The notes: generated from the sequence alone by a model not told the origin. A stretch of DNA of 40,000 nucleotides from Hahella sp. HNIBRBA332 (GCF_030719035.1 NZ_CP132203.1:1454579-1494578); one strand, 5' to 3'; shown: positions 9,355 to 40,000, counted from the first letter of the stretch. Numbers and translations are program-made.

Positions 9355-9366
9355 TCGCTTGGTCAA

Positions 9367-9608: not shown

Positions 9609-10085
9609 ATGAGTGGAACCGCAACCAGAGCTGGAAGGGGGCGGAAGCCCAAGCCCGTTGCGCAAAAGCTCCTGGCCGGCAACCCCGGAAAGCGTCAACT
9701 TAACACCCACGAACCCCAGTTTTCCCAGATCACTAACATCGACTGCCCGGACTGGCTGGGCGATGACGCACGCCGCATGTGGGAGCTGATCGCCCCGGAG
9801 CTATGCGCGCAAAAGATCATCGCCATTACAGACGTGCATAACCTGGAAGCCTTCTGCGCCGCCTATGGTCGCTGGCGTCAGGCGGAAAGAGAACTGGCGC
9901 AATATGGCATCACTATTACGGACGCAAACGGCGGCCTGAAGAAAAACCCGGCGGCCACCGTCGCCAATGAATCCTTAAAACAACTGGCGACCTTCGGGGC
10001 GCTCCTGGGCCTGGACCCATCCAGTCGCCAACGTCTGACCGGCGGCGGCAACCACGACACGTCAAACCCCTTCGATAAATTCTGA
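9609..10085 (+). CDS. terS: phage terminase small subunit, P27 family
   Basis: 158 aa. [24 protein letters not shown]-terminus and ..[10 protein letters not shown].. are typical of P27-family TerS. Located between HNH and terL. Confidence 0.85.
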
Positions 10086-10099
10086 TTTTCGGTTATTCC

Positions 10100-13023: not shown

Positions 13024-13042
13024 GCAGCCATACGAGGCACGC

Positions 13043-13600
13043 ATGCACACCAAGCAAAAACTGGATATCCCATTAAAGATCAAGTCCCTGTCCGACACCG
13101 GTGAGTTCGAGGGGTACGGCTCCGTATTCGGGGTTAAAGACTCGTACAGCGACATTGTCGTCAAGGGCGCGTTTAACGCCTCTTTGGATCGCTGGAAACA
13201 ACAAGGCCGCCTGCCGGCGCTGTTATGGCAGCACCGCATGGACGAACCCATTGGCGTCTATACCGCCATGGAGGAAGACGAGCACGGCCTCAAGCTGTCC
13301 GGGCGTCTGCTGGTTGACGATGACCCGTTAGCCAGGCGCGCTTACGGGCACCTAAAAGCCGGCTCTATTTCCGGCCTCTCTATCGGGTATTCCGTCCCCA
13401 GTCATGGCGTGGAATACGACAGCGCCAAAGAGGCGTTCTTAATCAAAGAAATCGACTTGTGGGAAGTGTCCCTGGTGACCTTTCCCGCCAATGACGAGGC
13501 GCGCATTGCGCAAGTCAAACACCGCCAACGAAACGCCGAGCACGCACAAGCCCTGGCCGCTATTTCATCCCTAAAACATATATTCACCACAAGGAACTAA
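13043..13600 (+). CDS. prohead protease, HK97 family
   Basis: 185 aa. GEFEGYGSVFGVKDSYSDIVVKGAF and SIGY...EVSLVTFPAN motifs. Synteny. Confidence 0.85.
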   Translation: MHTKQKLDIPLKIKSLSDTGEFEGYGSVFGVKDSYSDIVVKGAFNASLDRWKQQGRLPALLWQHRMDEPIGVYTAMEEDEHGLKLSGRLLVDDDPLARRAYGHLKAGSISGLSIGYSVPSHGVEYDSAKEAFLIKEIDLWEVSLVTFPANDEARIAQVKHRQRNAEHAQALAAISSLKHIFTTRN

Positions 13601-13605
13601 CCCTG

Positions 13606-25571: not shown

Positions 25572-25667
25572 GGAGGGCACTCCTCCCCACCTCTGCGCAG
25601 TTTGAGTAAATGCCGAGTTTGTGAAATTGGGGTTAGGCTCTCAGCTTCAATGGAAACTGGTTCTGGA

Positions 25668-25856
25668 AAGTGCTTTGATTCAATAAGTTGGGATCTGGCT
25701 TGTTGTGATAACGAGCCCCCAAGAAAGTGTATATGCGCACGCACGGTTTTTAGAAAATGAGATGGTTTTACTTTTCGGGGTTTTTACACTGGAATCAGTG
25801 AGCTGGAGGGGGTATCTTCGAAGTCTTGAAATTGAAGAACGCGCATGCGCGATATA
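25668..25856 (+). repeat. L-repeat copy 3, abutted by the IS; continues as GTTAGGG at 28944-28950
   Basis: Aligns to 186-390 with indels (TTCAATAA.., ACGGTTTTT..AATGAGAT.., TGGAATCA..TGGAGG..AACGCGCATGCGCGATATA). Confidence 0.6.
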
Positions 25857-25919
25857 TGATCCTACCCACCAATGATAGACACCCTGTTAAGCGAGTACAC
25901 TACGCTACAGAGGTGAACT

Positions 25920-26219
25920 ATGACCAAACAGAAAACAACAAATTCCAAATCTCGCCAACGTTATTCCGACGAGTACAAGGCGGAAGCCCTGACGCTAGCT
26001 CAACGTATCGGCGTGAGCGCCGCCGCAAGGCAATTGGGTCTGCACGAGTCACAACTTTACAATTGGCGCAGTAAAGCCCGACTGGCGCAGGATCGTGGCG
26101 AAACGGAACAGCAACTGGCCCAGGAAAACGCCCGCCTGAAGCGTCAGTTGGCTGAACAGGCGGAAGAGCTTGCCGTGTTAAAAAAAGCGGCGGCGTACTT
26201 CGCCAAAAGTGTGAAGTGA
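25920..26219 (+). CDS. IS3-family transposase OrfA
   Basis: 99 aa, 3 substitutions relative to copy 1. A7 slippery run at 26180-26186. Confidence 0.9.
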   Translation: MTKQKTTNSKSRQRYSDEYKAEALTLAQRIGVSAAARQLGLHESQLYNWRSKARLAQDRGETEQQLAQENARLKRQLAEQAEELAVLKKAAAYFAKSVK

Positions 26220-26624
26220 GGTACGCCTTTATGCACTCTCACACGAGCCTTTTCCGCGTCACTTGCATGGCGAGAGCGCTTCAGGTCTCAAGAAGCGGCT
26301 ACTACGTTTGGCTCCATCGACAGAAAGCCCCTTCTCTGCGACGACAGCGTCAGCAATCCCTGGACATCCAAGTTGGGGCCGCTTTTGATAAAGCTAAAAA
26401 GCGTAATGGGGCGCCCCGGCTGACCAAAGACTTGGCGCAACAGGGAGTCCAGGCTAACCGTAAAACGGTGGCCAGAAGCATGCAACGCTTGGGCTTGAGA
26501 GCGAAAGCCGCCAGAAAGTTTAAGGCCACCACTCACTCCAGGCATAGCCTGCCTGTGGCGGAAAACCTTCTTCAGCAGGACTTTAATGCAACGGAGATAA
26601 ATCAAAAATGGGCGGGTGACATCA
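26216..26624 (+). pseudogene. IS3 orfB, 5' exon (interrupted by the intron)
   Basis: Identical to the copy 1 OrfB protein through ...NQKWAGDI. The reading frame then runs into intron sequence. Confidence 0.85.
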
Positions 26625-28455
26625 GTGTGCCGCAGCAAGCTGCGGGAGAGATGAGGGATTGTGACCCCTCGTCATCGGCATACAGGTGCTGATGACAAAC
26701 CACCTTATGCGGCGATGGCCAAAAGCCGTGGTCGTGAGCGATAAGGAAAAGGCGCCAATAAGGCGTCAGGTGTGAAACAGGAAGACGAACAACCGTGAAC
26801 CGCCGTTCAATTGTCGAAACCACTCAGATGATACCAAAACCGGGGAGTGATGTTGCTCCGGGATCAGTGCGGACAGTGCCTGTTGATGGGCCGCATGGTA
26901 TCCGGCAGAGAGGCGGCGTGATCCTGTTTTGGGCTCTCTCATGGAACTGCGGGAACCTTCGATGGCAATGCCAAGGGAAAAGCACAAGCTCACAAGGCGA
27001 GGCCGATAGTACCGATGTGTCATCAAGGGGCGGAGCCGCTCGTAGTAGCATTGAAGGGGCTGTAATGGCCGTGGAGCGAAGGGGCGGCGTCATTCAGCCG
27101 AGCTTGTTGGTCAACTGCGCGAGCAGGATGAACTGATGAGTAAGGCAAAGCCATTTGTGATTGAGAAGTCTCTAGTTTGGGAGGCGTTCAAAGATGTTAG
27201 AGCGAACCGAGGAGTAGCGGGAGTCGATGGACAGTCGCTGCAGCAGTTTGAGCAGCGTTTGGGGCCGAACCTTTATCGGATCTGGAATCGCCTGTCGTCG
27301 GGGAGCTATTTTCCTCCGGCGGTCAGGGGTGTCGCGATCCCAAAGAAGAGCGGCGGCGAGCGTGTTCTGGGTATCCCGACGGTATCGGATCGTATCGCGC
27401 AGACAGTGGCGAAGAAGATTTTTGAACCCCTGGTAGAGCCGATCTTCCATGAAAACTCCTACGGCTATAGGCCCAATCGTTCAGCGCATGATGCGCTGAC
27501 GACGGTGCGGCGGCGATGCTGGGAGTATGATTGGGTGATTGAGTTTGATATCAAAGGGTTGTTCGATAATATCGACCATGACCTGCTGATGCGTGCGGTG
27601 AGACGCCACTGTCAGATACCTTGGGTGGCGCTCTACATTGAGCGCTGGTTAAAAGCGCCGATGGTAGGTCCAGATGGGCAAGAACAGCAACGCGATCGGG
27701 GTACCCCTCAAGGGGGTGTGATCAGTCCGGTGCTAGCCAACCTGTTTCTGCACTACGCACTGGATCGTTGGATCAAAGAGCGCTGTCGAAGCGTGCGATT
27801 GTGTCGCTATGCGGATGATGGTGTGATCCACTGCAAAAGCCAGCGTCAAGCTGAATGGGTGCTTGCCCAAGTCAGTCGGCGATTGGTTGACTGTGGCTTG
27901 CAGATCCATCCGGGGAAAACGCGCATTGTGTATTGTAAGGATGTCAATCGTACGACCAATCACGAGAGCATTGAGTTCAGCTTTCTGGGTTACAGTTTTC
28001 GTCCTCGAAAAGCAGTGGACAAATACGGGCGCGTTTACGTCAACTTCTTACCGGCAGTCAGTCCAGCAGCCTTGAAAGACATGCGGCGGAAAATCCGTAG
28101 TTGGCGCTTGCAGTTAAAGAACGACAAGTCGCTGATGGATTTATCACGTATGTTTAACCCTGTACTGAGAGGGTGGTGGCAATACTATGGACGGTTCTAT
28201 CGTTCAAAGCTGGAGGCTGTTGGTAAGGGCTTCGATGGATATCTGGTTCGGTGGCTAATGCGCAAGTTCAAATCCTTCGCAAGGCGCAAAACCAGAGCAT
28301 GGCGATACCTTGATACACTGAAACAACGTTACCCGCATGCCTTCGTGCACTGGAGTAACCAAGCAAAAGGCCGAATGATGGGAGCCGTATGACGCGAGAG
28401 TGTCATGTACGGTTCTGCGAGGGGCTGGCGGTGAGAGTCCGCCGGCCTACTCACC
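26625..28455 (+). mobile_element. group II intron (same orientation as orfB)
   Basis: 5' GTGTGC (GUGYG). Domain V-like hairpin GAGCCGTATGAC-GCGAGAG-TGTCATGTACGGTTC at 28382-28415. RT/maturase ORF in the domain IV position. Boundaries come from alignment with intact copy 1; the 3' end is +/-1 nt because the AC dinucleotide is at 28453-28454. Confidence 0.85.
27136..28392 (+). CDS. group II intron reverse transcriptase/maturase (no recognisable endonuclease domain)
   Basis: 418 aa. RT blocks including [23 protein letters not shown] and [10 protein letters not shown] (YADD). Maturase X region [11 protein letters not shown]. Ends without an HNH motif. Confidence 0.9.
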
Positions 28456-28913
28456 CCTATTTGTGGACGGAAGAAGGTTGGCTGTATCTAGCCGTCGTGC
28501 TGGACCTGTTCAGCCGTAAAGTCATAGGCTGGGCGATGAGCGAGCGAATGAAATCGGAGCTGGTCTGTGACGCTTTGCGCATGGCGTTGTGGCGTCGACG
28601 TCAACCCAAAGGGGTGATCGTCCATTCAGATCGAGGTTCCCAATATTGCTCAGAAGCCTATCAGACGTTGATTCAGGCGCATGGGCTTCGTTGCAGCATG
28701 AGCGGCAAAGGCAATTGCTATGACAATGCCTGTGTGGAAAGCTTCTTTCACTCCCTGAAAGTGGAAGCGATTCACGGAGAGCGGTACGCAACCCGACAAG
28801 AAATGCGTGAAGCCGTGTTTGAGTATATCGAAGTGGATTACAATCGAATCCGCCTTCATAGCGCAAATGGCTATCTCAGCCCAGAGAGTTATGAAGCATC
28901 GAAAGTCGCTTAA
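28456..28913 (+). pseudogene. IS3 orfB, 3' exon
   Basis: (T)[14 protein letters not shown]... to the end matches copy 1 OrfB with one substitution (K to E). Track ORF 28389-28913 is an artefactual extension into the intron. Confidence 0.85.
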
Positions 28914-28962
28914 TGACGTGTCTAATCTTTGTGGGCAGGATCAGTTAGGGCTAAAATAGATC

Positions 28963-29178
28963 ATGCTCAAGAATCCAAATGATTGGAAGAAAGCTGCGGA
29001 TAGACTGGGAGAGCTTTTAAATTCTGAAGTTGAACTTGGAGATGCTCTTCGCAGTATGCGTGAGATCGAAGGGTTTTCAGCCCTAGATTTAATAAAGTCT
29101 GTGTCTGAAGTCTGTAACCTGGAATCTTCTGACGCAGCAAGAATTGTGGCGCGAGAAGTTACGATGAGATCAAGTTAA
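28963..29178 (+). CDS. integron cassette ORF, hypothetical (71 aa)
   Basis: ORF track. First ORF after GTTAGGG at 28944. AT-rich. Confidence 0.5.
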   Translation: MLKNPNDWKKAADRLGELLNSEVELGDALRSMREIEGFSALDLIKSVSEVCNLESSDAARIVAREVTMRSS

Positions 29179-29273
29179 GATGATATTCAAATCGTCCATA
29201 TTTTTGGTGCGGCGATATATGCATGTGAGCATTTTTTTATATTGTTCATAAAAAATGGCTATTGCATAGTGTC

Positions 29274-29327
29274 TTTAAACAGGTTGTTGGTGTTGTCGCA
29301 GGTTGCCCACTGATGCGGGCGTTATAG
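29274..29327 (+). repeat. attC site 1 (short, weaker)
   Basis: R''-like TTTAAAC ... GGTGTTGTCGC core shared with attC 2/10/15 ... R' GTTATAG. Confidence 0.5.
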
Positions 29328-29337
29328 GTAAATCAGA

Positions 29338-29712
29338 ATGAGCTTTACTGTTGATTTGATTCTTACGGACATTCCTGAAAACAATAAGGATGCATGGTCG
29401 TTTATAGAGCAGTTACGAGAGGAATATTATGAAGACAAATCTGGCGCCCATTCTAAATTACAAGAATTCAACGAAGATTTGACAAAGAAGTACCCTTGTC
29501 TTTGCAGCTTCGCTGATGACGATCCTGAAATGGAAAATAGCCCATGGGCTGATGGCCCCATGATGGAAAATTTCGCAAGCAAAATGGGAATGGTGGCAAT
29601 AGTTTGGTCTAGAGCTGATGAAGTATTCCCATTTGTTTTAGATAGCGCACTAGCATTGGACATAATCGTTGCTGATGGGCAAAGTGAAAAAATCTACCGC
29701 CCTGGTATGTGA
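29338..29712 (+). CDS. integron cassette ORF, acidic hypothetical protein (124 aa)
   Basis: ORF track. Starts 11 nt after the attC 1 R' box. Confidence 0.6.
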   Translation: MSFTVDLILTDIPENNKDAWSFIEQLREEYYEDKSGAHSKLQEFNEDLTKKYPCLCSFADDDPEMENSPWADGPMMENFASKMGMVAIVWSRADEVFPFVLDSALALDIIVADGQSEKIYRPGM

Positions 29713-29755
29713 ACAGAAGCTCAGAATAAACCATGGTGGATAATTTGGTAACAAC

Positions 29756-29839
29756 CTATAACAAGGCGGTGTTGTCGCCTTCGGCTGGGACTGCCATTCC
29801 GCTGGCGCTCCATGTCAGCCCCAAACCACGGCGTTATAC
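29756..29839 (+). repeat. attC site 2
   Basis: R'' CTATAAC, AAGGCGGTGTTGTCGCCTTCGGCTGGGAC..., R' GTTATAC. Near-identical to attC 15. Confidence 0.85.
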
Positions 29840-29842
29840 GCT

Positions 29843-30337
29843 ATGAAAAAATTCACCATCGTACTATTAATGATCATCGCAGGATGTAGTGATTCTAAAA
29901 TGGATGCACCATTACTCAAAGATATGACGTCTATCAATTACACTAGGCATGAATTCTATCATCCACCTGAAAATGTGAATGGAGATCTTCTGACCTTAGT
30001 CTATGACATTCCTTATTTTGGGGCCTGTGGCGTATTTCCACCTTTACATATTGCTAATCAAACATTTTCTAGCGGTGGAGGTGATGGAGGAATGAGTCCG
30101 GGGGCATCTTGGAATCCATTTACGATAAGCCAAAACCAATATGATATTTTGCTAAATCAAGTTTTAGAAACACCAACGAGTGAATTAGAAGGGAAGTCGA
30201 GATTTAACGATGTAAAATTTATTCGTGATGATTCATTTGATAACATTCAAGATCAATTTGATTGGCTAGAGGCAGTTTGCGTTAAACATCGTGAACGCTA
30301 CAGATTGGAAAATGAAAAGTATCAAAAAGGCGTATAG
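29843..30337 (+). CDS. integron cassette ORF, putative lipoprotein (164 aa)
   Basis: Signal peptide with lipobox IIAGC. Confidence 0.65.
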   Translation: MKKFTIVLLMIIAGCSDSKMDAPLLKDMTSINYTRHEFYHPPENVNGDLLTLVYDIPYFGACGVFPPLHIANQTFSSGGGDGGMSPGASWNPFTISQNQYDILLNQVLETPTSELEGKSRFNDVKFIRDDSFDNIQDQFDWLEAVCVKHRERYRLENEKYQKGV

Positions 30338-30382
30338 CAAGGCGCTGCAACCGACCTCCGGCGGCTGAGCGCGGCGTTAAAT
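30332..30382 (+). repeat. attC site 3 (short; degenerate R'')
   Basis: GTATAGC AAGGCGCTGC...GAGCGCGGC GTTAAAT. Confidence 0.6.
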
Positions 30383-30397
30383 GCTAAGAGAGATTGC

Positions 30398-30715
30398 ATG
30401 AAGTTTACATATCCGCTTCCTACTCACAAGACTGGTGGCTTCTATCCTCCCACTGGGAAATGCGGTTATTGTGGCAATTCGAATGAAGGCAACTTTGTAG
30501 TTATTTCGCAAAGTGCTATGGAAAAAATTCCAGGAACCAATTCATACGCGCCAGCCGACGTGATTACAAGCTTTTCACTACTTGATCATGGTGTAACAAA
30601 AACTGGTCAAGGTATAACAATTTTTGAAAATACTAATGATGCGTTTTTTTGCTCAACTGAATGCCTTCGTAACTTTCTTAACGCCATAGTCGATGATTTT
30701 GAGGCGGGCAAGTAA
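30398..30715 (+). CDS. integron cassette ORF, Cys4 zinc-ribbon-like protein (105 aa)
   Basis: CGYCG near the N-terminus and CSTEC near the C-terminus. Confidence 0.6.
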   Translation: MKFTYPLPTHKTGGFYPPTGKCGYCGNSNEGNFVVISQSAMEKIPGTNSYAPADVITSFSLLDHGVTKTGQGITIFENTNDAFFCSTECLRNFLNAIVDDFEAGK

Positions 30716-30719
30716 ATGC

Positions 30720-30792
30720 ATTTAACAAACAAAGGCAGCATCGCCCTGCGGGCTGGACGCGCCAACGCGCGCCGCTGCTTTGGACGTTAAAT
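30720..30792 (+). repeat. attC site 4
   Basis: R'' ATTTAAC and R' GTTAAAT are exact complements. GC-rich imperfect palindrome between them. Confidence 0.85.
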
Positions 30793-30808
30793 TTCTCCAG
30801 GTATCGAG

Positions 30809-31160
30809 ATGAAGTGTTATAAACACCAAGATATAGATGCAATCGGATTGTGCAAAAGCTGCCACAAGGGAGTATGTCCCGAGTGTTCGGCGCTAGTAGG
30901 CGGGTCTGTGGCGTGTGCAGAATCTTGCCGCCCTCAATTACATGGTTGAGCGTGGCAAGAAAGTTTATAAGAATCTGGGTAAGCAATGGGGTCCTTCCGT
31001 AATCCTAAACGGTGTTGGTGGTGTATTCTTCCTGGGCTTCGGCCTATACAATTTTGGCCGATCTTCATCTTGGCTTCTAATCGGCCTTGGTGCAATTATG
31101 ATTGTTGGCGGTATTATGAGTGCAGTTCAAGGAAAGCGCATAGGCGAGCAAAAAAATTAA
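30809..31160 (+). pseudogene. cassette gene for a zinc-ribbon plus 2-TM membrane protein, frameshifted
   Basis: ATG 30809 gives MKCYKHQDIDAIGLCKSCHKGVCPECSALVGGSVACAESC, then a stop at 30947-30949. The +1 frame (track ORF 30915-31160) continues ..AALNYMVERGKK.. into two TM helices. Skipping one C near 30929-30933 joins them. Confidence 0.6.
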
Positions 31161-31247
31161 CAAGTCAATGAATATCACCCCTTCGGGGCTGGACCTACAC
31201 TCCGCGGCTTCGTCGCTGTGTTCCGGCCTTTTATTGAGGCGTTATGT
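31155..31247 (+). repeat. attC site 5
   Basis: R'' AATTAAC (contains the ORF stop TAA) ... R' GTTATGT. Confidence 0.8.
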
Positions 31248-31271
31248 CAATAAGGTGACTATTACATATAT

Positions 31272-31721
31272 ATGGGTAAGAAAAATTTCCATTTAATTAC
31301 AGAAGAGCGAACTCAAAGTTGTTTTTCTGCGCGAAGCTTTATATTGGAGCATCAAGAAAATCTATTTTTCTTAGTAGACTACTTCAGAGTACGTTTAAAT
31401 ACTGGAGCCAGTTTTTATGGAAATGCCGATACTGAGCCTGTTAAGAGCCAGTCGCATATCTATGGCTGTTCCAGTTGTGAGCGCTGGTTAAACAACGAAG
31501 TACCAAGAAAGTACACTGCAAGGCCATTCGCGATGGCACATTATTGTTGTAGCGGGATGTATGTGGCTGTAGAGGAAAATGAGCAATGCATGAATAGTAT
31601 CGTTAAATTTGATGAGTTTGCTACTTCTGATGGTGGCCAATGGCGTATTGGAAACTTGTTTATTTCATTTTGCCCATGGTGCGGAATAAGATTGCCTTAT
31701 AAGTCATTTAGGGATTGTTAG
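31272..31721 (+). CDS. integron cassette ORF, Cys-rich hypothetical protein (149 aa)
   Basis: ORF track. CSSC and CPWC pairs suggest a zinc ribbon. Confidence 0.6.
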   Translation: MGKKNFHLITEERTQSCFSARSFILEHQENLFFLVDYFRVRLNTGASFYGNADTEPVKSQSHIYGCSSCERWLNNEVPRKYTARPFAMAHYCCSGMYVAVEENEQCMNSIVKFDEFATSDGGQWRIGNLFISFCPWCGIRLPYKSFRDC

Positions 31722-31802
31722 TCTTTTAAATGCGCAATTTGGAAATGAGAAGTTATCGGTTTCGTGTAATTTAGACTTAACAAAAAGCTCAAAAGGACAA
31801 AT

Positions 31803-32093
31803 ATGGATAGAGAGTCTTTCAAAAAATCTATAGTTGATGACCTTTTGTCTTATAAAGATTACTGGGCTGAATATTCGGATACTGTTGATCCTCTGAGGGT
31901 TATAAACTGGATCTCCTCGGAGAATGAAGATGGCTACTATGAATATTTCCTGTGTGTAATTGACCAGGTTGCAGCAAGAAAAGGGCGAGAAATAGAGAAA
32001 GTGTTAACCCATGCAGGTGCTGAGTCTCTTTACCCTTTGGCAAAAATAAAAGTAAATTCGGCTTCGCAAAAAATGGAAGTTAAAGGTATATGA
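31803..32093 (+). CDS. integron cassette ORF, acidic hypothetical protein (96 aa)
   Basis: ORF track. Preceded by an attC 5' remnant (ACTTAAC at 31775-31781) with no R' box. Confidence 0.6.
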   Translation: MDRESFKKSIVDDLLSYKDYWAEYSDTVDPLRVINWISSENEDGYYEYFLCVIDQVAARKGREIEKVLTHAGAESLYPLAKIKVNSASQKMEVKGI

Positions 32094-32109
32094 AAGCGAC
32101 TGTATCAAA

Positions 32110-32155
32110 ACCTAACAAGCGGCATCAGTCTGACAGCCAGTGCCGGGCGTTAACT
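32110..32155 (+). repeat. attC site 6 (short)
   Basis: R'' ACCTAAC AAGCGGCATCAG...CAGTGCCGGGC R' GTTAACT. Confidence 0.7.
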
Positions 32156-32160
32156 GTCAT

Positions 32161-32451
32161 ATGAGCTTCAGAGAAAAATTAGAGAAGAAGTGGAAGATTA
32201 CTATCGCCTTGTTAAGCGAGGCTCGCGTAGTTCTTTGTGAATGTCAGGGTGTTGGCAAATATATCGCCGAGTACGATGAATACCTTGATCACAACGAGCT
32301 AGAACTAGCTCTGGACATGCTAGAAGAAGCTGCACTTGAGGCAACGAGTAAGCCACCAAAAGAGATTTGGGCAAAGCTCAAAGAGGCTGCGAAGTCTATG
32401 GGATTAGAGGATCGCTGTGAATTCTACAATCAGCAAATACAAAACAGTTAA
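32161..32451 (+). CDS. integron cassette ORF, MafI-like immunity protein candidate (96 aa)
   Basis: Start trimmed to the ATG after attC 6. The helical ..EYDEYLDHNELELALDMLEE.. plus ..KEAAKSMGLED.. pattern resembles what I recall of MafI-family immunity proteins (unverified). Confidence 0.55.
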   Translation: MSFREKLEKKWKITIALLSEARVVLCECQGVGKYIAEYDEYLDHNELELALDMLEEAALEATSKPPKEIWAKLKEAAKSMGLEDRCEFYNQQIQNS

Positions 32452-32523
32452 CAAAGCCAAGCAGCATCGCGCACTACGTGCGCTGGACCTCGCTACGCTC
32501 GGCCGCTGTTGGCGGCGTTAATC
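32446..32523 (+). repeat. attC site 7
   Basis: R'' AGTTAAC (contains the stop TAA) ... R' GTTAATC. Close relative of attC 18. Confidence 0.85.
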
Positions 32524-32526
32524 AGT

Positions 32527-32814
32527 ATGCATAGCCAACAGATACAAAAATTGATTGATGCTGTAAGGAAAGAGTTTGGAGAAATTCATTACTTTGGATC
32601 TTCCAAAGAAGAGAGACACGGAGTTGGATTCGCGATTTCCGATGTCAAAGCTACGTTTGCTATCTCTACATTGGGTGGTGACCTAAAGAGCAGTTACGAT
32701 ATTCAAGTAGAAGGTATACCCGCTGGTGAGTATATTTTTACTAATGAAGTTTCACTGGATGAATTTTTGAATCTCGTGAAGATATTTAGAGGTCCTGAGA
32801 GTGAGTGGCCATGA
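32527..32814 (+). CDS. integron cassette ORF, hypothetical (95 aa)
   Basis: Start trimmed to the first ATG after the attC 7 R' box. Confidence 0.6.
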   Translation: MHSQQIQKLIDAVRKEFGEIHYFGSSKEERHGVGFAISDVKATFAISTLGGDLKSSYDIQVEGIPAGEYIFTNEVSLDEFLNLVKIFRGPESEWP

Positions 32815-32818
32815 ATAC

Positions 32819-32892
32819 ACCTAACAAGTCAAACCAGCAAGGGCCCTTCGGGCCGGGACGCGCTTGCGCGCCACCTGTTCGAGGCGTTAAGT
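32819..32892 (+). repeat. attC site 8
   Basis: R'' ACCTAAC ... GGGCCCTTCGGGCC hairpin ... R' GTTAAGT. Confidence 0.85.
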
Positions 32893-32910
32893 TAAGTGTC
32901 AGGCGTAACG

Positions 32911-33189
32911 ATGAAAATTATTAGACCAAAAACAGAGATCTTGTGGTTAGGAACAGTGGATGATGGAAAGAAGCTACTTATTAATTCCGAAATCGAAGGG
33001 GTTTCCTATGACCTGATTACTGTTACCGCCGATGATGAGGATGAGTCGCTTTGGTTTGAAATTGTAGTGAACGATTACGTGGTGCAGATACCTATGTCAG
33101 TTGTACAAAAGGCAATCGAATCTGCATCTGATGAAGTTCATTCGGAATCTTGGTATGAGAAAAATGTATACACAAACAACGACACTTAA
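32911..33189 (+). CDS. integron cassette ORF, acidic hypothetical (92 aa)
   Basis: Start trimmed to the ATG at 32911. Confidence 0.6.
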   Translation: MKIIRPKTEILWLGTVDDGKKLLINSEIEGVSYDLITVTADDEDESLWFEIVVNDYVVQIPMSVVQKAIESASDEVHSESWYEKNVYTNNDT

Positions 33190-33240
33190 CAAACGCAAGC
33201 AGCCGATTCGCTACGCTCTCGGCTGTTGCTGGCGTTATAG
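33184..33240 (+). repeat. attC site 9
   Basis: R'' ACTTAAC (contains the stop TAA) ... R' GTTATAG. 57 bp. Confidence 0.8.
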
Positions 33241-33249
33241 GTAATCGAA

Positions 33250-33489
33250 TTGGATAAAGAAATCAAAAATTTATTAGGAAAGTTGTGCGTAGACTTGGGG
33301 TTCTGTTTACCGCCTATAGAGCAAGATCGCATCGCATCTCTTGGAGTTTGGAGGGCGGACGAATTTGCGAGGGATGTTATTTCTAGTGAAGGGCTTAATC
33401 CAGAGTATGAGAATAAATGGTTCCGAGAAATTCGAAATCGATTTGTTGCTCATTTTGGTAGTAACGAGTATGAAAGCAAAAATTCATAA
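33250..33489 (+). CDS. integron cassette ORF, hypothetical (79 aa), TTG start
   Basis: ORF track. No in-frame ATG exists in the cassette. Confidence 0.45.
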   Translation: MDKEIKNLLGKLCVDLGFCLPPIEQDRIASLGVWRADEFARDVISSEGLNPEYENKWFREIRNRFVAHFGSNEYESKNS

Positions 33490-33561
33490 CTAGGCGTGGG
33501 GTTGTCGCCTTCGGCTGGGACGGCGCATAAAAGCGCGCCACCCCAACACTTGGCGTTATAT
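33484..33561 (+). repeat. attC site 10
   Basis: R'' TCATAAC (contains the stop TAA), GGGGTTGTCGCCTTCGGCTGGGAC core, R' GTTATAT. Confidence 0.85.
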
Positions 33562-33581
33562 TTTCTTGAGAATGATTTGAG

Positions 33582-33869
33582 ATGGATTTTCACCTTACTT
33601 TGATGCTTCTTCCATATTGGTTAATACTGCTTTCCTTTCTGATTTGGGGTGGGAAGGGTAGCGATTCTGAGCTGTTAGTAACAGACCGTTTAGCCCTATC
33701 TTTGAAGTTCATTGGTGGTACTTGTGCAATAACTTTTATCTTGACGTTCATAGGTGGTACAACACTTGAGTTTTATGTGCCAGACTCATTTAAGCTGGGC
33801 GTTAGTTACTTGTTACCCATGGTTTTCTGTGGTCGAATATTGGAAAAATATAAGCGGTCTAAAAAATAA
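33582..33869 (+). CDS. integron cassette ORF, membrane protein (95 aa, about 3 TM)
   Basis: ORF track. Hydrophobic helices. Confidence 0.6.
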   Translation: MDFHLTLMLLPYWLILLSFLIWGGKGSDSELLVTDRLALSLKFIGGTCAITFILTFIGGTTLEFYVPDSFKLGVSYLLPMVFCGRILEKYKRSKK

Positions 33870-33985
33870 TATAACAAGCCGTTCAATCCGAAGCCCAACC
33901 TACGCTTCGTTTCGCCCATGTGCTGCGCACATTCTATGGGCTACACTACGCTCTCGGTTAGGCTCGGGTTAACGGAGCGTTATGT
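33869..33985 (+). repeat. attC site 11 (long)
   Basis: R'' ATATAAC ... R' GTTATGT. 117 bp. Confidence 0.75.
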
Positions 33986-34055
33986 GGAATAGCGAGTTTA
34001 AGCTAAGGAGTTCATTATCAATTGTAATCTTCATGGCAAAACGCAGCCTGCAATT

Positions 34056-34277
34056 TTGTGTTCTCATTTAGCGCAAGAAGGCCGCACCAAGCAAGTAGGT
34101 TGGATTCAAGCAGAGTACGATATTAACTCTAGAGAGCCTGGAGACTTGATGGCTTGGTGTGATGAATGTGATAAAACTTATGAAGCAGATAATGGTTGGA
34201 ATGATGAAAACGATTCTCACTTTAAGGTAGTCTGTTCTTCTTGTTTTGAAGAAATATGTGAAATTCAATCCGTTTGA
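34056..34277 (+). CDS. integron cassette ORF, Cys-rich protein, paralogue of 39530-39805; true start uncertain
   Basis: The frame is open from 34002. Upstream in-frame codons read ..NCNLHGKTQPAILCSHL.., aligning with ..DCEKHGRGIAATVCCHL.. of the paralogue. There is no ATG; AAGGAG at 34005-34010 is followed by ATT/ATC codons. Confidence 0.5.
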   Translation: MCSHLAQEGRTKQVGWIQAEYDINSREPGDLMAWCDECDKTYEADNGWNDENDSHFKVVCSSCFEEICEIQSV

Positions 34278-34282
34278 ATTCC

Positions 34283-34376
34283 ACATAACCAGTTGCAGCT
34301 GCAGATGTCGCTAGCTGTCACAAATTTTGTTCCAAAATTTTCGCCAGCCGCGCCGCGGCTGTGCAAAGCGTTAGGC
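34283..34376 (+). repeat. attC site 12
   Basis: R'' ACATAAC ... R' GTTAGGC. Confidence 0.8.
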
Positions 34377-34382
34377 AACAAT

Positions 34383-34676
34383 ATGAATGACTTCCCAATA
34401 AAAGAAAACGCTGATGAACGAGTATTAATTTGTTGCCATTTGATGGATGGTGCTGAATTACATTGGGTACATCATCTACCAGAAGAACAGTGTGTATGGA
34501 ACTTCATGTGTGCGAAAGAGCATGAACGATCTGATATGGTTCAAAAAACGTTGGAAGAAGCATGTCGGTTATTTCCAGAAATCGGAGAGCTAGCAGACGT
34601 GCCTCACGATATGGATGTATCGTTTAAAAAGGGTAAAAACACAGGTAAATGGTATGATTTTCACCGCAGTAACTAG
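34383..34676 (+). CDS. integron cassette ORF, hypothetical (97 aa)
   Basis: Start trimmed to the ATG at 34383, after attC 12 (track start 34293 lies inside the attC). Confidence 0.6.
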   Translation: MNDFPIKENADERVLICCHLMDGAELHWVHHLPEEQCVWNFMCAKEHERSDMVQKTLEEACRLFPEIGELADVPHDMDVSFKKGKNTGKWYDFHRSN

Positions 34677-34679
34677 CAT

Positions 34680-34778
34680 GCCTAACAAAGCGCTAAAATT
34701 CGTTCCGGCCGCAAAAAGCACGGCCTCCACCAGATAGTCTACGCGCTGCTTCGCCTGCCGTTTAGCTTTGCGTTAGGC
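34680..34778 (+). repeat. attC site 13
   Basis: R'' GCCTAAC and R' GTTAGGC are exact complements. 99 bp. Confidence 0.9.
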
Positions 34779-35063
34779 TCAAGAAGGAGCAAGAATGGAA
34801 TTAAGAGTTAACGAAAACGGTTTGCCAATTCTTGATCAATTTAGCGAAGAAGGGTTTGTTGACTGCGTATTAAAAATCGTTGACCTCGATGAGAGAGAGG
34901 ATTCATATAAATTTAATCTTCGTGCTTCTTATAGTGGAGTTGATTTGGGATTCAGGGTTGAGGTTGTGAAAGGTATTAAAGGCGGTTTTGATTCTGTGTA
35001 GTGGTCTAATAGTCCCGGACACATTAATAAGAGACAATACCCGTCAACGATTAAGGTGTCAGC

Positions 35064-35354
35064 ATGAGTCAGAAAAGGTCGTATAAGCAGTATCCAAAAG
35101 AGTTTAAAGAAGAGGCCGTTTCCCTGGTGCGCGATCAAGGTTATTCCGTCCCAGAAGCGGCTAAATCCCTCGGCATTAGCGCCAATATGCTCTACAAGTG
35201 GAAGGAAAAAATTGAAGCTCAGCTTGAAAACCAGGTTCTGGCTGAAGACGAGCGCGCCGAGTTAAAACGGCTTCGCAAAGAAAACAAAGAACTACGCATG
35301 GAAAAGGAAATCCTAAAAAAGGCTTCGGCCTTCTTCGCGAAAGAAATGAAATAA
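35064..35354 (+). CDS. IS3-family transposase OrfA
   Basis: 96 aa with HTH plus leucine zipper. A AAA AAG slippery site at 35315-35321. Confidence 0.9.
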   Translation: MSQKRSYKQYPKEFKEEAVSLVRDQGYSVPEAAKSLGISANMLYKWKEKIEAQLENQVLAEDERAELKRLRKENKELRMEKEILKKASAFFAKEMK

Positions 35355-35392
35355 AGTTCGCCTTCATTCAAGCAGAGTCGAGTCGCTTCCCA

Positions 35393-36223
35393 GTGAAAGT
35401 GCTTTGCCGGGCTCTGCGTGCAAGTCGATCAGCCTACTATGCCTGGCGTCGGCGCCGCGCGCCGGTGATCCGGTTTGATGAACTTCATCTGCATCGGCGA
35501 ATGAAGCGACTGTTTAACGCTTCTCGAAGCAGTCTGGGCAGTCGAGAGATGATGAAGAAGCTACGCGAAGAAGGCTTTCAGATAGGGCGTTATCGGGTTC
35601 GCAAGCTCATGAAGAGGTTGGGTCTTCAGGTCACTCAACGCGTTGCTTACAAGGCCACGACAAGGCGCAAGCATCATCATGCGGTTGCAGATAACTTGTT
35701 GAATCAGAATTTTAATCCTACTGCGCCCAATCAGGTTTGGGCTGGCGATGTGACCTATCTAAAAACAGGAGAAGGCTGGATGTATCTGGCCATTGTCATG
35801 GATTTATATTCCCGGAGGATTGTCGGCTGGCGCATCGACAAGCGCATGACGACGAGTCTGGTCAGTCAGGCGCTGATCAAGGCGTACAACTTGCGGAAGC
35901 CGGCCAAGGGCGTGGTATTCCATAGTGACCGTGGTTCACAGTACACCAGCGGACATTATCGAAAGCTGCTGGAAAAGTATGAAATCAGGGCGAGTATGGG
36001 TGATGTGGGAGCCTGTTGGGACAATGCGGTGGTTGAGCGCTTTTTTGGCAGCCTTAAGCATGACTGGATATTAAAAATCCCTCAGCCTACCCGGGAGCAC
36101 ATGGAACAGGATGTGGCAGCTTACATGAGATATTACAACCTCGAAAGACTACATACGGCGAACAATGATATGTCGCCGGTTAATTATGAAAACTCTCTAA
36201 AGAAAGTGTCCGGTGGGATTTGA
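35393..36223 (+). CDS. IS3-family transposase OrfB (DDE), -1 frame
   Basis: [17 protein letters not shown] and CWDNAVVERFF motifs. Confidence 0.9.
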   Translation: MKVLCRALRASRSAYYAWRRRRAPVIRFDELHLHRRMKRLFNASRSSLGSREMMKKLREEGFQIGRYRVRKLMKRLGLQVTQRVAYKATTRRKHHHAVADNLLNQNFNPTAPNQVWAGDVTYLKTGEGWMYLAIVMDLYSRRIVGWRIDKRMTTSLVSQALIKAYNLRKPAKGVVFHSDRGSQYTSGHYRKLLEKYEIRASMGDVGACWDNAVVERFFGSLKHDWILKIPQPTREHMEQDVAAYMRYYNLERLHTANNDMSPVNYENSLKKVSGGI

Positions 36224-36586
36224 CCAGAACACTGAGATGTCACTTATTCAAGACCATGTATATAAAAAAGGCGTAAGGTTTTTCCGTACAGGCCTAGAAA
36301 GCGACTCCCTGTTAAAAGTTCTTGCTCGTCTTTATGGCCTCGATGAGGCCTCAGCTCAAATGACTAACGAGGAAACATTTACGGCGATTGCTCTGCATCA
36401 AGGTGAGATTGATATGGCTTCTGAGTCCATAAAGATCAAGATTTTTGGTAAAGATCAGGACGAAGATTTGGAAGAAAACTACTATGAATCCTTTTTCAAT
36501 CTCGACTTAAAAAATGGCTTTGTATTTTGGAATGAAAAAGATCAAGAATATAGGGAGCCGTTGATTCGTGGTTTGTCAGCATAAAA

Positions 36587-36656
36587 GCCTAACAAGTGGC
36601 TGTTGTCGGACGTGTCTACGCTGCGCTTCGTCACGCCGCAAAGCCAAGCGTTAAGT
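36587..36656 (+). repeat. attC site 14
   Basis: R'' GCCTAAC ... R' GTTAAGT. Confidence 0.85.
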
Positions 36657-36658
36657 AT

Positions 36659-36943
36659 ATGAGAAAGATTTTCGAAGTTACGGATGGAGTACAGCTAGTA
36701 GTTCTTCTTTGGTTTGGCGCTGCATTGCTCCCAATTCTCATTCTTCATGGAAATGGTGAAGTTTGGGCTCAATCTTTAGGGGGGCTTATATTATTTTGCT
36801 CCGGTTTCTTTGTGTCAGAGTTTAGACGGTATAAAAAATCCAAATGCGAATGGTATATATCAGACTTCTCCGTTTACATTGCAGTACCGTTGATTTTATT
36901 TGGATTTATATTCTATGCGTCATTGTCTGGAAGTAATACTTAA
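36659..36943 (+). CDS. integron cassette ORF, membrane protein (94 aa)
   Basis: Start trimmed to the ATG at 36659, after attC 14. About 3 TM helices. Confidence 0.6.
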   Translation: MRKIFEVTDGVQLVVLLWFGAALLPILILHGNGEVWAQSLGGLILFCSGFFVSEFRRYKKSKCEWYISDFSVYIAVPLILFGFIFYASLSGSNT

Positions 36944-37020
36944 CAAGGCGGTGTTGTCGCCTTCGGCTGGGACTGCCATTCGCTGGCGCTTTATGTTAGC
37001 CCCAAACCGCGGCGTTATGC
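36938..37020 (+). repeat. attC site 15
   Basis: R'' ACTTAAC (contains the stop TAA) ... R' GTTATGC. Near-identical to attC 2. Confidence 0.85.
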
Positions 37021-37355
37021 ATAATCGAGAGTTTATCTATGGATGCTAAGGCAATAATAGAGGGTATTGAATCTGGTGATATCCTTCCAAAAGACCTAAT
37101 TTTAAATATTGATATCGATGCATACTTAGATAAACGTGATAGCGATGAAGCATTTGAAAGAAAACTATTGGCGGCCTTTGATGATGTTGCTGATATAGAT
37201 AACGATCAAATAGATGGTTATCAAGAGCTGACCTTGAAGATATTCAATTGTATCGATTCTTTAGTGGGAGTGTCAGAGTTGTCTTGTTATGTTGCTGAAG
37301 ACTTTGAAGTAATATTGAAAGGCATTTATAAAGGGCTCAGTAATGAGTGTTCTGG

Positions 37356-38186
37356 TCAAATCCCACCGGACACTTTCTTTAGAGAGTTTTCATAATTAAC
37401 CGGCGACATATCATTGTTCGCCGTATGCAGTCTTTCGAGATTGTAATATCTCATGTAGGCTGCCACATCCTGCTTCATGTGTTCCCGGGTGGGCTGGGGG
37501 ATTTTTAATATCCAGTCATGTTTAAGACTACCAAAAAAGCGTTCAACCACTGCATTGTCCCAACAGGCTCCCACATCACCCATACTTGCCCTGATTTCAT
37601 ACTTTTCCAGCAGTTTTCGATAATGTCCGCTGGTGTACTGTGAGCCCCTGTCGCTATGGAATACCACGCCCTTGGCCGGCTTCCGCAAGTTGTACGCCTT
37701 GATCAGCGCCTGACTGACCAGACTCGTCGTCATGCGCTTGTCGATGCGCCAGCCGACAATCCTCCGGGAATATAAATCCATGACAATGGCCAGATACATC
37801 CAGCCTTCTCCTGTTTTTAGATAGGTCACATCGCCAGCCCAAACCTGATTGGGCGCAGTAGGATTAAAATTCTGATTCAACAAGTTATCTGCAACCGCAT
37901 GATGATGCTTACGCCTTGTCGTGGCCTTGTAAGCAACGCGTTGAGTGACCTGAAGACCCAACCACTTCATGAGCTTGCGAACCCGATAACGCCCTATCTG
38001 AAAGCCTTCTTCGCGTAGCTTCTTCATCATCTCTCGACTGCCCAGACTGCTTCGAGAAGCGTTAAACAGTCGCTTCATTCGCCGATGCAGATGAAGTTCA
38101 TCAAACCGGATCACCGGCGCGCGGCGCCGACGCCAGGCATAGTAGGCTGATCGACTTGCACGCAGAGCCCGGCAAAGCACTTTCAC
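37356..38186 (-). CDS. IS3-family transposase OrfB (DDE), -1 frame
   Basis: 276-aa frame segment, 2 substitutions relative to copy A. Confidence 0.9.
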   Translation of the reverse strand: MKVLCRALRASRSAYYAWRRRRAPVIRFDELHLHRRMKRLFNASRSSLGSREMMKKLREEGFQIGRYRVRKLMKWLGLQVTQRVAYKATTRRKHHHAVADNLLNQNFNPTAPNQVWAGDVTYLKTGEGWMYLAIVMDLYSRRIVGWRIDKRMTTSLVSQALIKAYNLRKPAKGVVFHSDRGSQYTSGHYRKLLEKYEIRASMGDVGACWDNAVVERFFGSLKHDWILKIPQPTREHMKQDVAAYMRYYNLERLHTANNDMSPVNYENSLKKVSGGI

Positions 38187-38224
38187 TGGGAAGCGATTCG
38201 ACTCTGCTTGAATGAAGGCGAACT

Positions 38225-38515
38225 TTATTTCATTTCTTTCGCGAAGAAGGCCGAAGCCTTTTTTAGAATTTCCTTTTCCATGCGCAGCTCTTTGTTTTCT
38301 TTGCGAAGCCGTTTTAACTCGGCGCGCTCGTCTTCAGCCAGAACCTGGTTTTCAAGCTGAGCTTCAATTTTTTCCTTCCACTTGTAGAGCATATTGGCGC
38401 TAATGCCGAGGGATTTAGCCGCTTCTGGGAAGGAATAACCTTGGTCGCGCACCAAGGAAACGGCCTCTTCTTTAAACTCTTTTGTATACTGTTTATACGA
38501 CCTTTTCTGACTCAT
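38225..38515 (-). CDS. IS3-family transposase OrfA
   Basis: 96 aa, 2 substitutions relative to copy A. Confidence 0.9.
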   Translation of the reverse strand: MSQKRSYKQYTKEFKEEAVSLVRDQGYSFPEAAKSLGISANMLYKWKEKIEAQLENQVLAEDERAELKRLRKENKELRMEKEILKKASAFFAKEMK

Positions 38516-39023
38516 GCTGACACCTTAATCGTTGACGGGTATTGTCTCTTATTAACGTGTCCGGGACTATTAGACCACTACAGATCTTGCGTCTAATCTC
38601 ACGAGTGAGAAAAAGCGGAATAATCGAATACAAAAACTCGGCGAGCTATGGCGGGGTAATGAAGGTGGAGGGTGTAGGTGCCCAATAGGTGAGCCATCAC
38701 CAAAATTTGAACGTGTTCAGCCAACGAAAGAAGCAATAGCCATTTTAAATAAAATATTTTTATCGGCACCCGAGGAAACTCAAATTGTAATAGTTAGAGC
38801 TCTGGTTAGACCCGAGCCATTCGTTGATGATGCCATGAAGATTCTACTAGCGGCTATAAAAAGCGAACGAGTAAAAGTTAGAATAAATGCCGTGCGCACC
38901 ATTCGTGATATTGGCTCAAGCACAAAGCCATATTTAAACGATGTGCTTTTTCTTAAAAATGATCCAATATTTGCGGTTAAATCGGAAATTGAAGGTTTAG
39001 AGGCATATCTAAATGAAGTCGGC

Positions 39024-39140
39024 ACATAACAAACGGCTCCACGCAGACGTCCAAACCAGCGCGGTTTTTGTGGTTTCGGTGCGCTACACCTTAACACAAA
39101 AACCACTCCGGTTTGGCCGCTGGTGAGCCGGGCGTTAACT
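39024..39140 (+). repeat. attC site 16 (long)
   Basis: R'' ACATAAC (contains the stop TAA) ... R' GTTAACT. 117 bp. Confidence 0.8.
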
Positions 39141-39155
39141 GAACAGAGAAAATTT

Positions 39156-39410
39156 GTGGTTACTGATATCAATGGCAAGGAAGTAATAGTTGGGTCAAGG
39201 GTAAAAGTCTTAGAAATCGACATGTCTGTCACTGAGGGGCTATCGGAAAATGAAGTCATAGATATTAAATCAATGCTGGATGATGTTCTCGAAGTCTACG
39301 AAGTGGATGAATATGGTAGAGCATGGGTTGAGAAATGGTGGGATAGAGGTGACGGTCGAAGTGAAAGTCACAGTCTTGCTCTAGAGTCTAAGCAAATGGA
39401 GGTTGTTTAA
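39156..39410 (+). CDS. integron cassette ORF, hypothetical (about 84 aa), GTG start
   Basis: The frame is open from 39123 (inside attC 16). The first start codon downstream of R' is GTG at 39156; there is no in-frame ATG near the 5' end. Confidence 0.45.
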   Translation: MVTDINGKEVIVGSRVKVLEIDMSVTEGLSENEVIDIKSMLDDVLEVYEVDEYGRAWVEKWWDRGDGRSESHSLALESKQMEVV

Positions 39411-39416
39411 AATGTC

Positions 39417-39521
39417 AGTTAACAAAGTGTTCAATCGGATTTGGGTAAGCTGTCGCCATTTTTGCAAAAAAGCCGCAAAATTATCGCCATCTCACCCAAA
39501 CCAATTAACACGGCGTTAAGT
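39417..39521 (+). repeat. attC site 17
   Basis: R'' AGTTAAC ... R' GTTAAGT. 105 bp, relatively AT-rich interior. Confidence 0.75.
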
Positions 39522-39529
39522 GCCCAATA

Positions 39530-39805
39530 ATGGAAGTCGACGAATTGAACATAGATTGCGAGAAACATGGTAGGGGTATAGCTGCTACGGTCTGCTGTCA
39601 TTTGGTAAGGAATAATAGTGCTCCTTTAGGCTTTATCGAAAATAGTTCTGAGCCAGGCGATCTTCAAGGCTGGTGTTACGCCTGTGAGCACATGTTCTTG
39701 CAAGAAGAAGATAAAACGGAGCGCTTTCGTAAATTCTGCGACTTTTCAGTTGTTTGCGAAGAGTGCTACAAAAGCATTAAGGCACATCATGAGTCGAACA
39801 CTTAA
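39530..39805 (+). CDS. integron cassette ORF, Cys-rich protein (91 aa), paralogue of 34056-34277
   Basis: Shared pattern C-x-x-H-G...C-C/S-H-L...EPGDL.(G/A)WC..C...(V)VC..C with the other copy. Confidence 0.65.
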   Translation: MEVDELNIDCEKHGRGIAATVCCHLVRNNSAPLGFIENSSEPGDLQGWCYACEHMFLQEEDKTERFRKFCDFSVVCEECYKSIKAHHESNT

Positions 39806-39877
39806 CAAGGCCAAGCACCATCGCGCACCGCGTGCGCTGGACCTCGCTACGCTCGGCCGGTGTTGGCGGCGTTGCGT
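39800..39877 (+). repeat. attC site 18 (non-canonical R')
   Basis: R'' ACTTAAC (contains the stop TAA). The interior closely matches attC 7. R' reads GTTGCGT rather than GTTRRRY. Confidence 0.75.
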
Positions 39878-40000
39878 TTCAAGGGGAACACTTGAGTAGA
39901 ATCGAGCACATACGATCAGCGGGAAGTTTAGAAGTAAGAATAAAGCCTGGAAATGAGGGTGAATTTCAAACTTACTTTTTGGGGGTTTGGTTAGTTGCTT

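Follow-up and report, generated by a model that had tools for sequence, protein, structure and literature searches.

How does a long run of integron cassettes come to stand in a chromosome with no integrase gene in view, and has it been torn from its recombination platform or has it lost the integrase where it stands? We address this question for a 40,000-nucleotide stretch of the chromosome of Hahella sp. HNIBRBA332 (GCF_030719035.1, NZ_CP132203.1:1454579-1494578; herein the window, with coordinates counted from its first letter), in which an integron cassette array runs from 28944 to the window end and carries 18 attC sites (29274-39877) of 46-117 bp in a single polarity. The original prediction, made from the sequence alone, had placed the same 18 sites and had started the array at 28944, exactly where the first cassette begins (GTTAGGG); it left the choice between an interior piece of a chromosomal integron cut off from its platform and a cluster of attC sites lacking an integrase (CALIN). 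We conclude that the array is very probably a decayed chromosomal integron that lost its integrase in situ and whose own attI, split by an insertion sequence (IS), lies immediately upstream, rather than an array that has moved away from its platform.

The platform region and the integrase gene

Each unit of the array presents a small open reading frame (ORF), then TAAC..., then ...GCGTTA, with AT-rich stretches alternating with GC-rich imperfect palindromes, and this polarity had been taken to put attI and intI at lower coordinates. A platform was found on that side, at 25578-25856. The original prediction had noted three features on that side: the end of a phage tail gene, a non-coding repeat, and an IS3 copy with a group II intron inside. 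Each of them is borne out, although homology shows the repeat to be the integron platform. The features between the tail gene and the first cassette are as follows.

25578-25856, + strand: integron platform without intI, homologous to both sides of a deleted-intI remnant at 58 kb of the genome
25857-28943, + strand: first IS3-family element, in attI; ends TGATCC...GGATCA; transposase gene split by a group II intron; eight other genome copies (BLAST)
26625-28455, + strand: group II intron; reverse transcriptase/maturase ORF at 27136-28392 (RVT_1 and GIIM); Rfam RF01999 at 102 bits, RF00029 at 62 bits

Window 25578-25670 corresponds to sequence that normally lies beyond the intI stop codon and is 93.5% identical to genome positions 58705-58613, and window 25660-25856 corresponds to the attI/Pc region (92.9% identical to genome 58199-58003); these coordinates come from local BLAST, a global MAFFT alignment to the 58 kb unit having misplaced the 5' block. 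In the window nothing separates the two blocks, which meet at a short repeat (GTTCTGGAAAG / GTTCTGAAAAATG in the 58 kb copy). Since both flanks of intI are kept and fused, intI and its promoter were cleanly removed in place. The platform ends ...GCGCGATATA; from this point, 5 bp ahead of the GTT core, the IS takes over, and past the IS the sequence resumes as GTTAGGG at 28944, with the attI bases CAAAT missing, and the element has no target duplication (flanks ATA / GTT). The crossover that IntI makes at attI falls between the G and the TT of this core. At the orthologous locus of a related species (G003) the tail-gene end (TTGTGGTTGAGGAGGGC...) and the endpoints of the intI deletion are the same, attI is uninterrupted (...GATATACAAATGTTAAGC) and the first cassette is different. 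With a platform directly upstream and an uninterrupted junction in G003, the array is still attached to its own platform, which speaks against the first of the two predicted origins. On these comparisons, 25578-25856 plus GTT is the attI-bearing platform of the array.

The identification of attI draws on a family of related blocks. A profile search of the genome found 13 copies of the attI-side block, 90-240 bp long and variably truncated at the 5' end, at these genome positions:

18478-18714
52906-53067
57985-58230
1454786-1454978 (window 208-400)
1480222-1480436 (window 25644-25858)
1499825-1499926
2506239
2810178
3700661
4406354
5721754
6000463
6003697

When the 13 copies are aligned, conservation runs to ...ACGCGCATGCGCGATATACAAATGTT, with the sequence ending ...ATACAAATGTT, and the copies are unrelated after GTT (GTTAGGC, GTTAAGT, GTTATAC, GTTAACC, etc.); that conservation stops at GTT in all 13 is the pattern expected of attI. 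An attC in the right orientation follows within about 1.2 kb after nine of the 13, and in the 58 kb unit attI lies between an intI remnant and the first cassette. The same attI family occurs in 5-13 copies per genome in seven of eight Hahella genomes, and all seven are without an intact intI.

No intact intI was found in the whole-genome scan of this strain, the best TIGR02249 match reaching 87 bits against a cut-off of 265, and the assembly scanned is a single contig of 7.16 Mb that is 100% complete. No tyrosine recombinase was found in the window with PF00589 and TIGR02249, as the original prediction had it, nor within 40 kb downstream of a phage integrase gene at -14 kb; the PF00589 matches elsewhere in the genome are XerC/D, phage integrases and intI remnants. 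These remnants are of several forms. At 58.3 kb an open frame joins the first ~25 IntI residues (MDSPFLESVRREICLRGYSIRTEKTY) to the last ~60; a LexA box precedes this remnant, and four attC-bounded cassettes, canonically arranged, point away from it. Two tandem units, at 6.000 and 6.004 Mb, retain only the C-terminal ~100 IntI residues, one of them further broken by an IS630-type fragment, and at 5.18 Mb an N-terminal intI piece of 94 residues with a stop is common to three relatives. Among seven other Hahella genomes, five have no intI match beyond E 1e-30; in one the gene is split, and in another (G004, 348 bits) it is near-complete, with a platform that is not homologous at the DNA level. 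In the family's other genera, 12 of 18 genomes have an intact intI above the TIGR02249 cut-off. Integrase decay, with intI lost or broken in most Hahella genomes, thus characterizes the genus. As for the parts of a complete integron, the window array has no intI and, on comparative evidence, has an attI at its integrase-proximal end.

The attC sites

The attC calls here rest on two covariance models that serve as substitutes for the attC covariance model of IntegronFinder: R1, trained on the 18 window sites, and R2, built from 39 foreign R1 matches only (E<=0.01), which lie beside intact intI in three other genera. As a control, R1 was run on the 20 kb to the left and right of intact intI genes from three further genera in this family; 40 of 40 matches fell upstream of intI, in the orientation that diverging cassettes should have, and there were none in 60 kb on the opposite side. 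With R2, 16 of the 18 sites in the window are found again, their borders unchanged (E<=0.004), as are four sites beyond the window end; the two weakest (29274-29327 and 33484-33561) are missed. The failure of an attC covariance model on most sites had been named in advance as what would overturn the prediction, and 16 of 18 are recovered. The sites are listed below with their model scores in bits.

28944-29327, + strand: cassette 1 and attC 1; begins GTTAGGG; 71-amino-acid ORF at 28963-29178; attC at 29274-29327, the weakest site, R1 25.6, missed by R2
29756-29839, + strand: attC 2; R1 52.0, R2 29.2
30332-30382, + strand: attC 3; R'' is TAGC, not TAAC; R1 41.7, R2 21.6
30720-30792, + strand: attC 4; R1 59.7, R2 34.6; canonical minimum-energy fold, z -3.6
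31155-31247, + strand: attC 5; R1 47.5, R2 39.1
32110-32155, + strand: attC 6, the shortest (46 bp); closes a two-ORF cassette (31272-31721, 31803-32093); R1 36.2, R2 28.8
32446-32523, + strand: attC 7; R1 63.7, R2 52.9; array breakpoint in the related genome G001
32819-32892, + strand: attC 8; R1 52.8, R2 33.4
33184-33240, + strand: attC 9; R1 39.3, R2 19.7
33484-33561, + strand: attC 10; R1 40.7, missed by R2; the whole cassette has a 94% paralogue just beyond the window end
33869-33985, + strand: attC 11, 117 bp; R1 43.5, R2 27.3; canonical fold, z -3.9
34283-34376, + strand: attC 12; R1 44.8, R2 31.9
34680-34778, + strand: attC 13; R1 38.8, R2 32.1
36587-36656, + strand: attC 14; R1 51.2, R2 43.0
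36938-37020, + strand: attC 15; 93.7% identical to attC 2; R1 51.6, R2 30.3
39024-39140, + strand: attC 16, 117 bp; R1 38.9, R2 30.8; fold z -6.9
39417-39521, + strand: attC 17; R1 41.7, R2 28.0; fold z -6.0
39800-39877, + strand: attC 18; R' is GTTGCGT, non-canonical; 92% identical to attC 7; R1 60.1, R2 47.5
39878-40000, + strand: start of cassette 19; the array goes on past the window

The end motifs that had been given for every site hold for most of them: TAAC opens 16 of 18 (exceptions site 1, TAAAC, and site 3, TAGC) and GCGTTA closes 16 of 18 (exceptions site 4, GACGTTA, and site 18, GCGTTG). The bottom strands align well at the two ends only, with a mean column identity of 36%, and near-identical pairs are few (2/15 and 7/18). 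The GC content of the array is 38-45%, against 53.8% for the 7.16 Mb genome.

Integron integrases recognize a hairpin of the attC bottom strand composed of R box, spacer and L box. When a structure with R and L boxes of 5 bp each, set apart by 3 unpaired spacer nucleotides, was imposed on the 18 aligned bottom strands, 88.9% of cells paired as against 65.5% in shuffles, a value that none of 500 shuffles attained; all five L-box pairs varied on both sides, and sliding the partner columns by 1-3 lowered the pairing to 27-53%. In about half of the sites the minimum-energy DNA fold is itself R box, a 2-3 nt unpaired spacer and L box, and the hairpin folds carry a bulged base on the 3' arm; the other sites fold differently when taken alone, as is usual for attC sites, which need protein to be held in shape. 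The features that define attC (R''/R' ends, a paired L box, an unpaired spacer, extrahelical bases, and a conserved structure with varying sequence) are all present. Given that the imposed structure pairs, that the L box covaries and that R2 recovers 16 of 18 sites, the attC observation is confirmed.

Four further sites lie beyond the window (window-equivalent 40417-40485, 43234-43281, 43525-43599 and 44115-44167), giving 22 co-oriented sites in an array that extends some 4.2 kb beyond the window, to about 44.2 kb in its coordinates. The widest gap between successive sites is ~2.7 kb and has a 1.24 kb IS inside. A convergent mini-array at about 44881-45349, within the interval 44881-45565 (both window-equivalent), closes the main one; it consists of a single cassette with an inverted attC and of an attI copy that is likewise inverted, and its platform is interrupted by a 215-bp fragment of the first IS3 element. 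Toward lower coordinates R2 finds no attC in window 1-28943, with 1-9600 scanned also with filters off, and an attC-like sequence at 1915-1990, like any attC in 1-9600, was rejected as unsupported by R1 and by R2 with filters off. A crude regular-expression and pairing scan of the genome for attC was too noisy to use (576 matches).

Locus history, mechanism and alternatives

The order of the locus is tRNA-Gly/Cys/Leu, prophage, platform, array. In G006, behind the same tRNA genes, a truncated phage integrase gene is fused into the middle of the second ORF of cassette 6 and followed by cassettes 7-10 (98% identity), a deletion (G006 3184300-3194300, positions 190-1300) having taken out the prophage, the platform and the first five cassettes; in G001, at the same tRNA locus, a platform and 13 attC follow about 26 kb later. 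Since both share the tRNA locus with the array, the order tRNA-Leu, prophage, platform, array predates these species. The array thus sits at the same place in relatives, as sedentary chromosomal integrons do, by its tRNA neighbourhood in G001 and G006 and by the tail-gene/platform junction in G003. A prophage attR (a repeat of the tRNA-Leu 3' end) was sought in order to place the platform inside or outside the prophage, and nothing convincing was found. Cassettes 93-98% identical to those of the window occur in four other Hahella genomes in a different order, with breakpoints inside attC; G001, for instance, is without cassettes 8 and 9, and its junction falls in the 3' half common to attC 7 and attC 9. 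Judged from these alignments, such cassette-precise shuffling is the signature of integrase-mediated gain and loss during Hahella diversification.

In our account, a chromosomal integron, each cassette usually comprising one small AT-rich ORF and an attC, was inherited at a fixed Hahella locus, and intI was then deleted in place by recombination between the short direct repeats, which left the post-intI sequence fused to the attI/Pc region at 25578-25856. Later, the IS3 element with its group II intron entered attI 5 bp before the GTT crossover point, putting 3.1 kb between the platform, with any Pc promoter, and the first cassette, and after this insertion two copies of a second IS3 element inserted within cassettes. 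The sequences themselves show the attC sites, the platform, the loss of intI, the IS insertions, the lack of any intact intI and the cassette-precise differences among species; that the array is inactive at present and poorly expressed is inferred from these. A search for Pc gave one consensus-type match, TTGAAG-17-TATGAT (window 25832-25860), whose -35 belongs to the attI platform and whose -10 arises where the IS joins it; it is a consensus match only and points into the IS. In the end state, cassettes would be neither excised nor captured unless an integrase were supplied in trans. As the genome has no intact intI, the array is now recombinationally frozen; it is most likely inert, and most of its cassettes are probably silent unless they have promoters of their own. 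Its attC sites are structurally sound and could be mobilized by an integrase supplied in trans.

Several points weigh against this account. The site is assigned as attI by comparative anatomy, and two of the 13 copies are found in prophages, beside umuD and with cargo free of attC (see below), so that the module may have a second role, e.g., as a moron promoter or a phage exchange point. The training sites of R2 were chosen by R1, though validated independently by their position beside intact intI genes, and the covariance-model scan of the whole genome for attC took in 150 of 2582 candidates. The lack of a target duplication around the IS in attI, together with the 5 missing bp, allows for IS-IS recombination that deleted some first cassettes. 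Finally, the arrays of HNIBRBA332 and G003 differ downstream of the same intI deletion, which implies cassette exchange after the local loss of intI and limits "frozen" to the present genome.

This last point bears on the best surviving alternative, that the array is still active by way of an integrase acting in trans, whether encoded on a plasmid missing from the assembly, brought in by a mobile integron, or present as a recombinase too diverged for the IntI profile to match. The intact attC structure (88.9% pairing), the different cassette order among species with the same intI deletion, the recent look of the IS insertions and the retention of 5-13 attI copies per genome across the genus would all fit such activity. 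The genome is nonetheless a single complete contig in which no IntI exceeds 87 bits, five relatives are likewise without one, and the species differences could date from a time when other intI copies were intact; we consider continuing activity unlikely.

Less likely again is the explanation that the cassettes once belonged to the interior of a larger integron and were separated from intI and attI by an IS-mediated inversion or translocation, with the functional platform elsewhere. IS copies do flank and interrupt the array, the one in attI lacks a target duplication, and at 56-58 kb, 1.4 Mb from the array, there is another platform with intI deleted, accompanied by a paralogue of cassette 8. 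Against this, a platform copy stands directly upstream in the correct orientation, the first cassette starts at GTT, the orthologous junction in G003 is uninterrupted, intact intI is nowhere in the genome, and no copy of this IS occurs at the 55.9 kb end of the other array. The left, intron-less IS copy (417-1673) keeps an intact 3-bp target duplication, GAA, which excludes an inversion between it and the copy in attI. The check proposed with the original prediction, of locating an intI/attI and asking whether its neighbouring sequence joins 28944 or 401, accordingly found no intact intI to join and no IS-IS inversion. Two rearrangements were considered and rejected: inversion between the inverted IS3 copies 417-1673 and 25857-28943, on account of that duplication, and a single large inversion (55.9 kb to 1.4835 Mb) linking the array to the 58 kb platform, on account of the array's own platform in the window and the absence of the IS at 55.9 kb. 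That the palindromes are other intergenic repeats, such as repetitive extragenic palindromic (REP)-like elements or terminators, is scarcely credible: several sites do lack a canonical minimum-energy hairpin and have weak z-scores, but covariation falls exactly at the L box, polarity is single with GTT at the borders, the same models match only the cassette side of intact intI in other genera, interspecies array differences break at these sites, and the sites co-occur with intI remnants and attI copies.

Integrase loss in situ leaves a decayed integron of an already known kind. CALINs are common, and their origin is usually untraceable. The term was defined in the IntegronFinder paper, where integrase loss from a complete integron is one proposed origin, and 95% of the CALINs surveyed there had no recognizable intI pseudogene within 10 kb (Cury et al. 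2016; PMC4889954). The Hahella array is a CALIN by that definition, having two or more attC separated by under 4 kb and no intI over the same distance, so that the second predicted origin, now with 22 co-oriented sites, stands; it also resembles the CALINs of that survey (PMC4889954) in having IS inside and beside it and cassettes of no assigned function. Unlike most CALINs, it keeps both flanks of the lost intI and attI, and sister copies keep intI remnants. It is therefore a documented case of the integrase-loss route to orphan arrays. Each step can be read from the sequence: short repeats mark where intI was cut out, attI survives with an IS inside it, and the sister platforms have decayed through different deletions.

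Sedentary chromosomal integrons include the Vibrio cholerae superintegron and Xanthomonas integrons with decayed intI. The Hahella array is like these in its chromosomal position, its fixed locus in the genus, its length (22 attC), its small AT-rich cassettes and the LexA box at the sister remnant. It differs in that its attC are heterogeneous (46-117 bp, 36% mean column identity) and not one homogeneous family, its intI is absent rather than mutated, and there are 13 attI copies, not one. Intact integrons of other Hahellaceae and Oceanospirillales (G011, G014, G018 and others) share its attC architecture under the same models, with arrays diverging from intI; what sets them apart is an intI that scores over the TIGR02249 cut-off, as it does in 12 of 18 family genomes. 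A literature search on Hahella and integrons gave incidental mentions only. The 13 aligned platform copies define the attI of a non-clinical integron lineage by comparison alone, which is rarely possible, and the array is a pool of about 22 small genes without assigned function that could regain mobility if an integrase enters the cell.

The attI family, mobile elements and cassette contents

The less ordinary aspect of the array is the multi-copy attI family. The copies diverge at GTT, most lead into small arrays, and the intI lesions are all different; behind these points may stand a genome-wide network of attI sites serviced in trans by the last intact or an incoming integrase, not one integron per genome, an idea that we hold tentatively and judge improbable on balance. 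Under it, platforms may have spread by temperate phages or as giant attC-bounded "cassettes."

Tandem units in genome interval 5990000-6009999 (positions 9850-14300) are arranged head-to-tail as post-intI sequence, C-terminal intI remnant, attI and cassettes, and both contain paralogous GFA/CENP-V-like cassettes (MIKGSCCCGAVQFEL...). The downstream unit stands ~260 bp after an attC, as if the platform lay within a cassette-like unit.

Two related prophages (window 186-400; genome 1204400-1208000, about 430-475) carry attI-like ends, ...GATATACAAATGTTAAGT / ...GTTAGAT, just downstream of a umuD promoter and LexA box, and the AT-rich cargo that follows them is unrelated; R2 with filters off finds no attC in the cargo of either. 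The LexA box at 125-145 was considered as the intI promoter of a second platform and rejected: the leftward ORF reads ...PLFLEHVSAGFPSPA, which we take to be a UmuD-type N-terminus, and the segment is 95% identical to a second prophage.

The second IS3-family element is present twice within the window array:

34996-36231, + strand: copy 1; 3-bp duplication CTG; between the two ORFs of cassette 14; a simple insertion
37348-38582, - strand: copy 2, inverted; splits the ORF of cassette 16; 97.5% identical to copy 1

Excising copy 2 restores a single open frame of ~245 amino acids. Both attC between the two copies keep the array polarity, so no inversion took place there. A further IS of 1244 bp in the continuation of the array (window-equivalent 41068-42311) has five other genome copies at 99.9-100%, and judging by this identity it probably transposed recently. 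The intron-less copy of the first IS3 element has rve and HTH_Tnp_1 domains. The group II intron has five genome copies, 99.8-100% identical, and four of these share one insertion point within the IS3 transposase gene:

window 25857-28943
genome 1623236-1626322
genome 2571798-2574884
genome 2900962-2904048
genome 5968101-5969942

Target duplications are absent from all four IS copies with the intron and present in both intact intron-less copies checked (417-1673 of the window and 3245301-3246556). Two of the intron-bearing copies abut CTAAC/GTTAG.

None of 20 predicted cassette products reached a curated cut-off in Pfam or NCBIfam, in keeping with the original prediction that no product would be confidently recognizable. 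Below threshold, the cassette 7 product (32161-32448) matches a MafI-family immunity protein at 24 bits (cut-off 31), 31272-31718 matches DUF6980, and the IS-split ORF matches HEAT repeats. A number of the cassette proteins are small and acidic, a common trait of orphan immunity proteins. In the AT-rich prophage cargo, window 2018-3325 encodes a 435-amino-acid HD-domain protein that is dGTPase-like by eye and is a candidate anti-phage enzyme depleting deoxynucleoside triphosphates. Hahella sp. NBU794 has a terminase 98% identical to the one encoded by the resident prophage.

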